Counted from the first letter of the stretch, positions 55,411 to 59,149 are shown. The stretch is 64,000 nt of DNA from Polaribacter sp. (GCA_047616665.1 JBLHGY010000002.1:9319-73318); one strand, 5' to 3'. Translations and numbers: made by a program. Notes: generated by a model from the sequence alone, not told the origin.

Positions 55411-55450
55411 TTAAAAGAGGCTTCCAATACAAATTGGAAGCCTCTTTTAA
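55411..55450. terminator. Terminator
   Basis: TTAAAAGAGGCTTCCAAT-ACAA-ATTGGAAGCCTCTTTTAA. Confidence 0.75.
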
Positions 55451-55519: not shown

Positions 55520-58500
55520 ATGCAATACAATCATCAAGAAATAGAAGAAAATTGGCAAAAATTTTGGGCGGAAAATCAAACTTTTAAAGCCTCAAATACT
55601 TCTGAAAAGCCAAAATATTATGTGTTAGATATGTTCCCGTATCCAAGTGGTGCAGGTTTGCATGTTGGGCATCCTTTAGGGTATATTGCAAGTGATATTT
55701 ATGCACGTTACAAGCGTCACAAAGGCTTTAATGTGTTGCATCCGCAAGGGTATGATTCTTTTGGTTTGCCAGCAGAGCAATACGCAATTCAGACAGGGCA
55801 ACACCCAGCAAAAACCACAGAAGCAAACATTGCAACCTATAGAAAACAATTAGATAAAATTGGTTTTTCTTTTGATTGGAGTACAGAAGTAAGAACTTCT
55901 AACCCTGAATATTATAAATGGACACAGTGGATTTTTATTCAACTATTTAATTCTTGGTATCATAAAGACACAGACAAAGCAGAAGACATTGCTACTTTAA
56001 TTTCAATCTTCAAGAAATCTGGAAATGCGAAAGTAAATGCTGTATCAGATGAAGATATAGCCTCTTTTTCTGCGGAAGAATGGAACGCTTTTTCTACCAA
56101 AGAACAAGAAGCAATTTTATTACAATACCGTTTAACTTTTTTATCGGATACAGAAGTAAATTGGTGTCCGGGTTTAGGAACCGTTTTAGCAAACGATGAA
56201 ATTGTAAACGGAGTATCAGAAAGAGGAAGTCATCCTGTTGTGCGTAAAAAGATGACCCAATGGTCTATGCGAATTTCTGCATATGCACAGCGTTTATTAG
56301 ACGGTTTAGAAACCATAGATTGGCCACAGCCTTTAAAAGATTCTCAAACAAACTGGATTGGGCGTTCTCAAGGAGCCATGGTTTCTTTTGATGTCCTATC
56401 CCCAACCCTTTCCGAAGGAAAGGGAGTGCAATCAGACTCTAAAAAAACACTTGGTTATATGACAGGTGGAAATAACTCCTATTTATTGCTTGAAAAAGCA
56501 AAAGAAATGAGAGCCAATCCAACTCCAGCAGAAGCGATCTTATGGAAACAATTAAAAGGAAAAAAAACAAAATTAAAGTTTAGACAGCAACATTTAATAA
56601 ACAATTTTATTGTAGATTTTGTTTGTTTAACTCGTAAGTTAATCATAGAAGTGGATGGTAAAATTCACGATTATCAATTAGAAAAAGATGCTGAAAGGAC
56701 TTTAGAATTAGAACAAGAATCTGGTTTTAAAGTTATCCGTTTTAAAAACGAAGAAGTAATTGAAAATATAGATAAAGTTTTATTTGAAATTGATAAAGAA
56801 TTAACAAATCAATTTTATAAAATACAAAAACAAGAGAAAGAAATTCAAGAGAAAGATAAGAACGTACAGGCTTCCCTTTCCTTTGGAAAGGGATTGAGGG
56901 ATAGGATTCAGGTTTTTACCACAAGACCAGATACTATTTTTGGGGTTTCTTTTATGACGCTTGCCCCAGAGCATGAGTTGGTTTCTAAAATTACAACAGC
57001 TGCTCAAAAAAGTGCAGTTGAAAAGTATATTACTGCCACTGCAAAACGTTCTGAGCGCGATCGAATGGCAGATGTTAAAACCATTTCTGGTGTATTTACG
57101 GGAGCGTATGCAATACATCCTTTTTCTGGTGAAAAGGTTCAAATCTGGATTGGAGATTACGTACTAGCAAACTACGGAACAGGAGCTGTAATGGCGGTAC
57201 CTTGTGGAGATCAAAGAGATTACGATTTTGCTAAAAAGTTCGAAATTCCGATTCCTAATATTTTTGAAGGGGTAGATATTTCTGAAGAAGCGCACACCGG
57301 TAAAGACGCAACAAGAATTGCAAATTCCGATTTTTTATCAGGACTAAAATACAAGAAAGCATTAAAATTAGCCATTTTTGAAATGGAGAAACGTGGCTTT
57401 GGGTACGGCAAAATAAATTACCGTTTGCGAGATGCTGTTTTTAGCAGACAACGGTATTGGGGAGAACCATTTCCGGTGTATTATAAAGACGGAATGCCTC
57501 AAATGATTGACGCAAAACACCTGCCAATTGTATTGCCAGAGGTAGAAAAGTACCTACCCACAGAAGATGGGAAACCACCTTTAGGAAATGCAATAGCTTG
57601 GGCTTGGGATGCTCGTGGCAAGAAAGTAGTCTCTAATGAGAAGTTAAAAAACAAGACGGTGTATCCTTTAGAACTGAATACAATGCCTGGTTGGGCAGGA
57701 AGTTCTTGGTATTTTAATAGATATATGGATGCTACAAATACAGCAGAATTTGCAAGCAAAGAAGCCTTAGATTATTGGAAAGAAGTAGATTTATATATTG
57801 GAGGTTCTGAGCACGCAACAGGGCATTTATTGTATGCGCGTTTTTGGCAAAAATTCTTGTTCGATAAAGGAATTGTGCCTGTAGATGAGTTTGCAAAAAA
57901 ACTGATCAATCAAGGGATGATTTTAGGAACTTCTGCTTTTGTTTACAAAGCAACTGCTTTTGTGAAAGAAGGTTGTGGTTGTGCTGATGAAAAATCGAAT
58001 GCTGATATTCTAAATAAAATACCTGCAGTACTTGTTTCTAAGAATTTATTTAGTTCTGATGACGAATTTGAAACAGTCGTTAAAAACTATCTAATGGATA
58101 ATGGTTTTTTGAATCCTTTAAATGCAGACATGGTACTGATTGTGAAGACTGCTATGCATGCAGATGTTTCTTTGGTAAATGCTTCTGATGAGTTGGATGT
58201 TGAAGCTTTTAAAAATCATGCTTTAAATGCAGCTTATAAAAACGCTGAATTTATTTTAGAAGATGGGGTTTACAAAGTAAAGCGCGAAGTAGAAAAAATG
58301 TCGAAGTCGAAATACAATGTTGTAAATCCGGATGCTATTGTTGCCCAATACGGTGCAGATGCACTGCGTTTGTTCGAAATGTTTTTAGGTCCTTTAGAAC
58401 AAGCAAAACCTTGGAAAACTTCTGGTATTTCTGGAGTTTCATCCTTTTTAAAGAAATTATGGAAACTGTATTTTAACGAAGAAATTTTTGAAGTTTCAAA

Positions 58501-58975
58501 AGAGAAAGCAACAAAAGAGGAGTTAAAGGTTTTACATAAAACAATTAAGAAGGTTGAAGAAGATATCGAGCGTTTTTCTTTTAACACCTCTGTTTCTACT
58601 TTTATGATTGCGGTAAATGAATTCACCGCCTTAAAATGTAATAAGCGGGCTATATTAGAACCATTATTGGTTTTATTATCGCCGTATGCACCGCATATTT
58701 CAGAAGAATTATGGAGCAAGCTAGGAAATAAAAAATCTATTTCTACGGCAGATTTTCCGGTTTTTGATGCAAAACATTTGGTAGAAAGTGCGAAGAATTA
58801 TCCGATTTCATTCAACGGAAAAATGCGTTTTACGTTAGAACTTCCGTTAGATTTATCAAAAGAAGAAATAGAAAAAGCAGTATTAGAAAACGAGAAAACA
58901 ATTGCACAATTAGAAGGTAGAACTCCTAAAAAAGTAATTGTGGTGCCTGGAAAAATTATAAACATCGTTGGTTAA
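55520..58975 (+). CDS. leuS: Leucine--tRNA ligase carrying an in-frame DUF559 insertion
   Basis: MFPYPSG.GLHVGH (HIGH), TTRPDT, GTGAVMAVP..DQRD, RQRYWGEP, KMSKS; 1151 aa. Confidence 0.96.
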   Translation: MQYNHQEIEENWQKFWAENQTFKASNTSEKPKYYVLDMFPYPSGAGLHVGHPLGYIASDIYARYKRHKGFNVLHPQGYDSFGLPAEQYAIQTGQHPAKTTEANIATYRKQLDKIGFSFDWSTEVRTSNPEYYKWTQWIFIQLFNSWYHKDTDKAEDIATLISIFKKSGNAKVNAVSDEDIASFSAEEWNAFSTKEQEAILLQYRLTFLSDTEVNWCPGLGTVLANDEIVNGVSERGSHPVVRKKMTQWSMRISAYAQRLLDGLETIDWPQPLKDSQTNWIGRSQGAMVSFDVLSPTLSEGKGVQSDSKKTLGYMTGGNNSYLLLEKAKEMRANPTPAEAILWKQLKGKKTKLKFRQQHLINNFIVDFVCLTRKLIIEVDGKIHDYQLEKDAERTLELEQESGFKVIRFKNEEVIENIDKVLFEIDKELTNQFYKIQKQEKEIQEKDKNVQASLSFGKGLRDRIQVFTTRPDTIFGVSFMTLAPEHELVSKITTAAQKSAVEKYITATAKRSERDRMADVKTISGVFTGAYAIHPFSGEKVQIWIGDYVLANYGTGAVMAVPCGDQRDYDFAKKFEIPIPNIFEGVDISEEAHTGKDATRIANSDFLSGLKYKKALKLAIFEMEKRGFGYGKINYRLRDAVFSRQRYWGEPFPVYYKDGMPQMIDAKHLPIVLPEVEKYLPTEDGKPPLGNAIAWAWDARGKKVVSNEKLKNKTVYPLELNTMPGWAGSSWYFNRYMDATNTAEFASKEALDYWKEVDLYIGGSEHATGHLLYARFWQKFLFDKGIVPVDEFAKKLINQGMILGTSAFVYKATAFVKEGCGCADEKSNADILNKIPAVLVSKNLFSSDDEFETVVKNYLMDNGFLNPLNADMVLIVKTAMHADVSLVNASDELDVEAFKNHALNAAYKNAEFILEDGVYKVKREVEKMSKSKYNVVNPDAIVAQYGADALRLFEMFLGPLEQAKPWKTSGISGVSSFLKKLWKLYFNEEIFEVSKEKATKEELKVLHKTIKKVEEDIERFSFNTSVSTFMIAVNEFTALKCNKRAILEPLLVLLSPYAPHISEELWSKLGNKKSISTADFPVFDAKHLVESAKNYPISFNGKMRFTLELPLDLSKEEIEKAVLENEKTIAQLEGRTPKKVIVVPGKIINIVG
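56394..56906 (+). mobile_element. Inverted-repeat/hairpin-bounded DUF559 endonuclease cassette inserted in frame in leuS
   Basis: Left end TCCTATCCCCAACCCTTTCCGAAGGAAAGGGAG; right end reverse-complemented TCCTATCCCTCAATCCCTTTCCAAAGGAAAGGGAAG; encodes AKEMRANPTPAE..LW..L...KFRQQH.I..FIVDF.C...KLIIEVDG.IH...D.ERT..L...GFKVIRFKN. Confidence 0.85.
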
Positions 58976-59012: not shown

Positions 59013-59149
59013 TGTCATTGCGAGGCACGAAGCAATCTGCTAGTCGGTTTATGTAATTTATTTGTCATTTCGAAAAGTGCCTTTTTAGGCGATTGAGAAA
59101 TCTCATTAAAAAAAAAATCGAAAGATTAATACTGAATCTTGATTTAGTA
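59013..59149. repeat. Cluster of short palindromic REP-like units
   Basis: TGTCATTGCGAGGCACGAAGCAATCT 59013-59038; TGTCATTTCG...GAGAAATCTC 59063-59104; TACTGAATC-TT-GATTTAGTA 59130-59149. Confidence 0.6.

Follow-up and report, generated by a model that had tools for sequence, protein, structure and literature searches.

A hairpin-bounded DUF559 nuclease cassette inside leuS of Polaribacter, a candidate homing-like element that needs no splicing

How does an essential gene come to carry a complete nuclease domain in the middle of its coding sequence, and does that domain stay in the protein? We examined this question in 64,000 nucleotides of DNA from the marine bacterium Polaribacter sp. (GCA_047616665.1, JBLHGY010000002.1:9319-73318; this whole stretch is called the window below), which include leuS, the gene of leucine-tRNA ligase (LeuRS). 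A first-pass annotation, made from the sequence alone, had described a foreign DUF559 endonuclease segment at LeuRS residues ~293-462, flanked by GC-rich inverted repeats. Our analysis indicates that this cassette is real, mobile as a unit and probably kept in the protein, and we infer that its spread may be selfish and driven by the nuclease. The parts of the locus, in window coordinates, are the following:

55520..58975, + strand: leuS, the host gene, encoding leucine-tRNA ligase (LeuRS) of 1151 aa in a single continuous open reading frame (ORF)
56342..56393, + strand: conserved 5′ anchor block QTNWIGRSQGAMVSFD, residues 275-291, the likely left crossover zone
56394..56906, + strand: the whole cassette, 513 nt, in frame, taking the place of about 7 codons of the empty loop
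56394..56426, - strand: left arm, a C-rich tail and an 8-bp hairpin (56406-56424), read as LSPTLSEGKG
56492..56803, + strand: predicted DUF559/YcjD-like nuclease domain of the Vsr fold, residues 325-428
56873..56907, + strand: right arm, the inverted copy, a 9-bp hairpin and a mirror G-rich tail, read as SLSFGKGLRDR
56908..56935, + strand: 3′ anchor block QVFTTRPDT
56897..57367, + strand: CP1 editing domain (PF13603), residues 460-616, its first hairpin broken by the cassette

The host protein passes the cut-off of TIGR00396, the leuS equivalog of NCBIfam (872 bits, cut-off 548), its HIGH, KMSKS and CP1 motifs are all intact, and it holds the only leuS-type editing-domain match in the assembly at E~1e-50; its closest public homologues are proteins named Polaribacter LeuRS. 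An assembly artefact was ruled out by near-identical 1151-aa proteins in many public records. The PF04480 (DUF559) profile matches residues 325-428 (E=4.2e-31, model positions 5-108 of 109) with 107.5 bits over the whole model, against a Pfam gathering cut-off of 20.6. The foreign DUF559 segment was thereby borne out, and the possibility that the insert belongs to no such family was set aside. Every motif of the DUF559/Vsr-like signature that had been listed was located in the insert; the predicted active-site residues are E338, D366, E377, D379, H383 and D390, accompanied by FRQQH at 354 and RFKN at 407. The insert also matches PDB 3hrl, a Neisseria endonuclease-like structure (E=6e-17), and apart from DUF559 its Pfam content is a sub-threshold NusG_II match. 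In an AlphaFold model from a 67-row alignment, residues 321-440 form a separate domain (block pLDDT 61-85) with low-confidence linkers on either side; the host core was poorly modelled (pTM 0.43), and the single-sequence model reached a pLDDT of 34. The GC-rich inverted-repeat ends that had been claimed were found on both sides, at 56394-56426 and 56871-56906, each with a hairpin of 8-9 bp: GC content is 55% in the left arm and 47% in the right, compared with 27% in the core and 36% in the leuS gene.

To define its boundaries, we took the loop between the anchors QxNWIGRS and VFTTRPDT from 70 of 73 genomes of the genus, omitting G052, whose leuS is cut at the 5′ end and is of the decayed type described below, and G046 and G049, which gave no leuS editing-domain match above 6e-8. 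The 70 loops fall into four states: 24 are empty, 8 have a short insert of 5-29 extra residues, in some cases from a second repeat family, 31 have a decayed DUF559 domain and 7 an intact cassette. The decayed inserts have lost the equivalents of D379, H383 and D390 as well as both arms. In all 24 empty alleles the loop is 33-34 aa long, and one of these loops aligns without gaps to the crystallised LeuRS 2v0c; the window loop has 197 aa. The earlier description of a short variable loop thus stood in part: the loop is short when empty, but its length is then fixed, and the site is a hot spot at which inserts of several kinds occur. That the arm-to-arm span of 513 nt equals 171 codons and that its deletion keeps the frame open was confirmed, but the product is not the natural empty allele, as it retains 26 aa instead of 33-34. 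The cassette therefore replaced about seven host codons, and precise excision would not restore the natural gene. Replacement without duplication was seen also at recG and metH, where empty sites of this genome were compared with filled relatives, and the left cassette end varies by two codons among intact leuS copies. On these grounds an insertion sequence or a miniature inverted-repeat transposable element was rejected.

The first-pass annotation had allowed for removal of the insert at the DNA or RNA level or for its looping out, and one rival explanation holds that pairing of the arms guides such removal, or a translational bypass. The arms can indeed pair into a single long stem, so that the junctions are brought close, the cassette strand folds with a stability z-score of -7.9 (0 of 100 shuffles equally stable), the cassette length is a multiple of three, and insert depth was low in one RNA run. 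The product of removal, however, would differ from the loop of all 24 empty alleles and of 2v0c, and inserts without arms are tolerated in frame in 31 genomes. Metatranscriptome contigs of four runs from two studies covered the insert in every run, and no joint skipping it was found in these four contig sets, though contigs lack rare forms and could derive in part from DNA. One contig runs from within the insert across the right junction, unspliced; the left junction was not bridged among the contigs listed. Loose contig ends in the two studies read as the decayed loop of P0121/P0122, which places the two alleles in the same waters, and the low RNA depth is matched by these ends from co-occurring strains. 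No Rfam match was obtained in the window and no Hint domain in the insert. We consider arm-guided removal very improbable, and the claim found no support. Group I and group II introns were rejected on the lack of Rfam matches, the lack of RNA skipping and the deletion product, shorter than the empty allele by 7 aa. Inteins have a Hint domain, begin with C, S or T and end in HN followed by C, S or T. The insert gave no Hint match in Pfam, starts with L or V and ends in R-I, and an intein was rejected as well. The cassette thus very probably stays in LeuRS as an extra domain on a surface hairpin.

The alleles of the series differ in how arms and active site are kept. Arms accompany the E.DG..H motif in 7 of 7 intact leuS inserts and in none of the 31 decayed ones, and likewise in 13 of 13 intact and 0 of 5 decayed recG inserts, with kin among the copies that are not independent. 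D is found at position 390 in 114 of 120 intact copies, and D390A is common to P0003, a look-alike from another species, and the near-identical P0002. The dN/dS ratio of intact inserts is 0.06-0.31 (20 of 21 pairs computable), and that of decayed inserts has a median of 0.128 against 0.101 for the host (465 pairs); intact and decayed inserts are both under purifying selection. Since armless decayed inserts are kept in frame, LeuRS tolerates a domain of ~130 aa without arms to guide its removal. Immediately ahead of I-x-VFTT, 26 of 31 decayed alleles and 15 of 24 empty ones carry K, but none of the 7 intact ones does. The same architecture was found in recG, metH, ileS and a UvrD-like helicase, in agreement with the proposed residence in tolerant loops of housekeeping genes.

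Did the cassette reach leuS once, or repeatedly? On host trees built without the loop (FastTree and IQ-TREE), the intact state takes 7 changes for 7 rows, and intact hosts as a single clade were rejected by the approximately unbiased (AU) test (7 rows, p=2e-62; 5 rows, p=6e-9), by which one ancient vertical insertion was ruled out. The distribution of the alleles is patchy and disagrees with the host tree; it is not the presence at one site in all relatives, along the phylogeny of leuS, that the first-pass annotation had named as speaking against a mobile unit. In the same set, the sister of the window allele is decayed on each flank separately (support 93 and 99), and the sisters of two other intact hosts are empty. 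The 93 LeuRS nearest by the right flank, the window included, comprise 87 decayed and 6 intact alleles and no empty one; the cassette here therefore appears to have replaced a decayed predecessor. P0121 has a decayed allele, yet it is 99.1% identical to the window over the 679-aa right flank, and P0003 is 94.7% identical to the window in the insert and 91.6% and 83.7% in the flanks. Q464 travels with the cassette: it is found in 5 of 5 near intact relatives, while all 87 near decayed alleles have D or A. R277 is common to P0002 and P0003 and occurs in only 1 of 87 decayed relatives. In the insert tree, copies group by host gene (8 intact leuS, support 91; 18 recG, 98; 31 decayed leuS, 100), and LeuRS accounts for 118 of the best 120 long homologues of the insert, across Bacteroidota. 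A metagenome scan with the exact left flank returned one locus, a decayed allele with 88.6% flank identity. We conclude that the cassette has very probably been exchanged laterally as a unit. The dominance of the decayed allele in this clade and its replacement by an intact cassette had escaped the first-pass annotation, as had the boxC/triplex type of the arms.

Each arm is laid out as a pyrimidine block, a 3-nt loop, a purine complement, a 3-nt linker and a mirror purine block. The published rule for intrastrand triplexes asks for three blocks, a stem of 6-15 nt, loops of 1-6 nt and at most one mismatch (PMC4666352). In our own re-implementation of this rule, with T*A-T allowed, it is matched in the Y-hairpin-R plus mirror-R form by the left arm on the bottom strand (8-nt stem) and by the right arm on the top strand (9-nt stem), both with 3-nt loops. 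Matches were found in 1 of 728 background leuS windows and at 4 sites of the 2.06-Mb genome, two of which are the cassette arms. The arms depart from the exact E. coli TMECO consensus, having another sequence, and from its intergenic location, being coding. Between cassettes the stems differ with compensating changes, and at one recG site they are read in two frames, which together indicate that the constraint acts on the nucleic acid. An exact-arm scan of the genome collection returned at least 123 loci. Among 80 of them with flanks, 10 have DUF559 within 78 nt (5 leuS, 1 ileS, 1 metH, 2 UvrD-like helicases and 1 free gene), far above the PF04480 background of 84 matches in 121 whole genomes, by arithmetic ~0.06% per 2.4-kb locus; an absence of association between arms and DUF559, which would have told against a joint unit, was thus not what we saw. 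The remaining 70 are solo arms or nuclease-less doublets, part of them in frame. Twelve of 121 genomes have the exact arm pattern, and all 12 also have DUF559, with none for the reversed control, a comparison that is partly circular. Arm copy number is low, with 4 in this genome and at most 5 per genome among the genomes scanned. These results support the earlier proposal of a nuclease with cognate terminal hairpins as one unit, without transposase, intein or intron.

Arms occur also apart from cassettes. In this genome, a solo arm identical to the left arm lies in frame in a 751-aa ORF of a peptidase-domain ABC transporter (C34:6008-6039), and another forms the last codons of an N-terminal metH ORF (C198:2252-2285). 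Nuclease-less inverted doublets, similar to REPINs, lie in frame in class I aminoacyl-tRNA synthetase genes of the ileS/valS type (L172, L196, L241, L156). In the fabI-ycjD region of E. coli K-12 (L141) a full boxC (2207-2243) stands downstream of ycjD, in the same orientation as the right arm, and a partial boxC (2395-2423) overlaps the 3′ end of ycjD, itself a DUF559 gene. In E. coli strains that lack the eefRABCD operon, ycjD occupies its place (PMC12817139).

How would such a cassette spread? At about an even chance, we favor the explanation that the cassette with its predicted nuclease spreads between leuS alleles by nuclease-promoted, homing-like conversion and not by splicing or transposition. 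In its favor are the four loop states and the scattered intact hosts, the grouping of inserts by host gene, the common fate of arms and catalytic motif, the nearness of DUF559 to arms, purifying selection on the inserts and the RNA contigs without skipping; Vsr-like nucleases are, moreover, known homing enzymes (PMC3239194, PMC2677866). An arm-bounded cassette would first land in a tolerant loop and replace a few codons, only in-frame landings surviving. The nuclease, fused or released, would then cut a recipient allele without the arm-altered junction, and the break would be mended from the donor, with crossovers in the conserved WIGRSQG and VFTTRPDT blocks, so that the cassette is copied. 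A candidate target is the right junction K-I-D/E-V of empty and decayed alleles, which the right arm overwrites in 7 of 7 intact ones, so an intact cassette could cut and replace a decayed allele while being itself immune. After fixation, arms and active site would decay and the domain would stay folded, presumably because it is embedded in an essential enzyme. Decayed alleles would regain an empty-like right junction, K-I-D-V, and be open to overwriting again, as appears to have happened in the window lineage. As non-autonomous by-products, the cycle would leave solo arms and doublets without nuclease.

A number of observations weigh against this explanation. Decayed alleles have also crossed lineages (G015 is placed with empty hosts, G016 and G047 with intact ones) and the near relatives are mosaic, which indicates that ordinary recombination can move the leuS loop. 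The D390A change in P0002 and P0003 suggests that an impaired nuclease probably took part in at least one exchange. The 93 nearest LeuRS include no empty allele, and the intact type is in the minority, unlike what is expected of a sweeping homing element. In favor of the explanation, cores at least 5 points above host identity, at host identities of 0.85-0.90, were seen in 34 of 430 intact and 0 of 2078 decayed pairs, but these pairs are not independent, and the members of the intact set were gathered for their similarity to the window insert. Sliding windows of 90 nt revealed no co-conversion tract of 90 nt or more; flank exchange accompanying cassette swaps is short. Insert dS equals host dS among one-per-species genomes, near saturation, and no recent transfer is visible there. 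Of 10 free DUF559 genes only 3 match the strict arm rule, and of 4 metH cassettes only 1, shorter hairpins bordering all four metH inserts, and no nuclease lies near 70 of the 80 arm loci. The domain is without the extra DNA-binding modules of I-Bth0305I, which leaves its specificity unexplained.

Part of these observations would suit a mobiliser resembling a REPtron, in which DUF559 recognises the folded single-stranded arm, nicks beside it and disperses solo arms, doublets and occasional cassettes, the leuS swaps then being ordinary homologous recombination without cutting of the recipient allele. Solo arms do outnumber cassettes, in-frame doublets without nuclease lie in ileS/valS-type genes, and this genome has its solo arms in the ABC transporter and at the metH end. 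Also in keeping with such a mobiliser are the joint occurrence of exact arms and DUF559 in 12 of 12 genomes (with the circularity mentioned), the boxC copies downstream of and at the 3′ end of E. coli ycjD, in the place of eefRABCD (PMC12817139), and a small catalytic core without DNA-binding module, which suits recognition of a structure; the movement of decayed and D390A alleles would be accounted for as well. Yet cassettes of one host gene strictly group together, and across Bacteroidota those in leuS occupy one and the same site, a pattern that fits allelic and not random spread, the arms are few per genome, neither target duplication nor a fixed end was seen, and the Pfam scan gave no HUH/Y1 domain. 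We regard this explanation as unlikely. A passive or domesticated passenger is more unlikely still: here an old entry, aided by the instability of triplex repeats, would be followed by neutral recombination that shuffles the loops, cutting being irrelevant and the domain tolerated or useful, for instance in nucleic-acid binding on LeuRS. It would fit the decayed domain being the commonest allele and conserved almost like the host, the occupation of the same loop by other repeats and short inserts, the movement of decayed and D390A copies, and the unstable loci that triplex motifs mark (PMC4666352). It leaves unexplained the joint keeping or loss of arms and catalytic residues in two genes, the retention of D390 in 114 of 120 intact copies, and the excess, among divergent hosts, of intact cores that are almost identical.

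Further observations concern the locus and its relatives. A perfect, terminator-like 18-bp inverted repeat (55411-55450) lies between the upstream gene and leuS, and a second LeuRS region (window ~57960-58230, ~residues 815-905) diverges strongly among relatives. Directly downstream of leuS (59014-59036 and 59064-59108) lie two copies of a second family of palindromic repeats, starting with GTCA(C/T)T(T/G)CGA and present in 7 copies in the genome; related repeats lie in frame in the leuS loop of G007, G014, G020, G022 and G072, and 76 of the 87 near decayed alleles have a peptide of this type at the end of the loop. LeuRS with two DUF559 inserts at separate sites and MetH with two or three were found (P0021, P0029, P0006, P0071). 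The bin G023 has two distinct leuS copies with intact cassettes (L012, L074), probably through strain mixing, and G101 (L016/L138) has an ORF resembling a type I restriction M-S fusion, in which repeated coding units of a different kind flank DUF559.

Compared with known systems, the homing-like cassette that we favor is closest in several respects to the EDxHD or Vsr-like homing enzymes (I-Bth0305I, PDB 3r3p, and the enzymes of 'fractured genes'; PMC3239194, PMC2677866), which likewise place a Vsr-fold nuclease in conserved genes with patchy allelic occurrence; DUF559 and EDxHD enzymes are assigned to the same Pfam/structure group, group 58 (PMC3424549). E338, D366, H383 and D390 are present with a spacing similar to that in EDxHD enzymes, D366-H383 being 17 apart as are D196-H213 (by spacing, not alignment), but 3r3p was not matched at E<=0.01 and Foldseek returned only LeuRS among the matches listed. 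For the EDxHD enzymes, the described locations are group I introns and the gaps between split inteins or between gene halves, and these enzymes have N-terminal DNA-binding parts (PMC3239194, PMC2677866), whereas the cassette is a bare core, a single 104-aa domain in one continuous ORF, with triplex arms and no splicing device; a multidomain EDxHD enzyme in an intron or split gene was ruled out by this single domain in a continuous ORF. The boxC/PIT/TM repeats have the same Y-hairpin-R and mirror-R layout, the cassette having stems of 8-9 nt and loops of 3 nt, but in E. coli boxC is given as always intergenic and as unconnected with mobile elements (PMC4666352, the main text of which does not contain the words ycjD and endonuclease), while the cassette arms are coding and bracket a nuclease. 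With REP/REPIN sequences and their RAYT, and with intragenic REPs and Rickettsia RPEs (PMC3733652, PMC3337134), the cassette shares a nuclease gene between inverted palindromes and solo and doublet copies, some in frame, a layout that is also that of a REPtron, in which inverted palindromes flank the enzyme gene and solo copies and doublets are scattered elsewhere. It differs in its lack of a HUH transposase and of a GTAG/CGTC tag, its low copy number and the in-frame position of the enzyme gene itself in essential genes; a REPtron proper was rejected, the insert having no HUH/Y1 tyrosine transposase. Homing inteins share the in-frame residence at allelic sites of housekeeping proteins and the cycle of invasion, decay and reinvasion, but the cassette lacks the Hint domain and the terminal intein residues. 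The yeast WHO elements home without protein splicing, as is proposed for the cassette, but they take the place of a gene's 3′ end and are expressed separately (PMC7282813), whereas the cassette stays inside the host polypeptide. A terminal DUF559 fusion is described on a SPOUT methyltransferase (PMC1829167). By analogy with these systems, the cassette would work like a homing element without intron or intein and with REP-like ends. The literature searched, which included few subscription papers and no supplements, gave no account of DUF559 cassettes with bounding arms in housekeeping genes.

The cassette may well represent an undescribed kind of selfish DNA, one that would need no splicing. 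The usual view is that a homing element enters essential genes only by way of an intron or an intein; a nuclease cassette that stays in the protein, at allelic sites of leuS, recG, metH, ileS and helicase genes, would be a third route, if true. We also put forward tentatively, as somewhat less probable than not, that DUF559/YcjD with boxC-type arms may constitute a distinct class of mobile element, in which the enzyme behind boxC/TM repeats reads a folded DNA end, does without intron or intein, resides permanently in essential proteins, re-invades its own decayed, domesticated copies and is a source of new domains. This would give a testable function to DUF559/YcjD and would supply a candidate mobiliser for the boxC/triplex repeats, to which no enzyme is assigned in the text of PMC4666352. 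The locus itself contributes a four-state allele series, the joint decay of arms and active site, and a decayed allele replaced among close relatives, and it lends itself to testing: close relatives include empty, intact, point-damaged (D390A) and fully decayed alleles, so that target, immunity and biased inheritance could be studied on natural sequences. It also bears on the birth of domains by domestication, as 31 genomes keep a dead nuclease domain under purifying selection near that of the host. If true, a nuclease of ~105 aa that recognises a folded DNA end could also be a useful tool.

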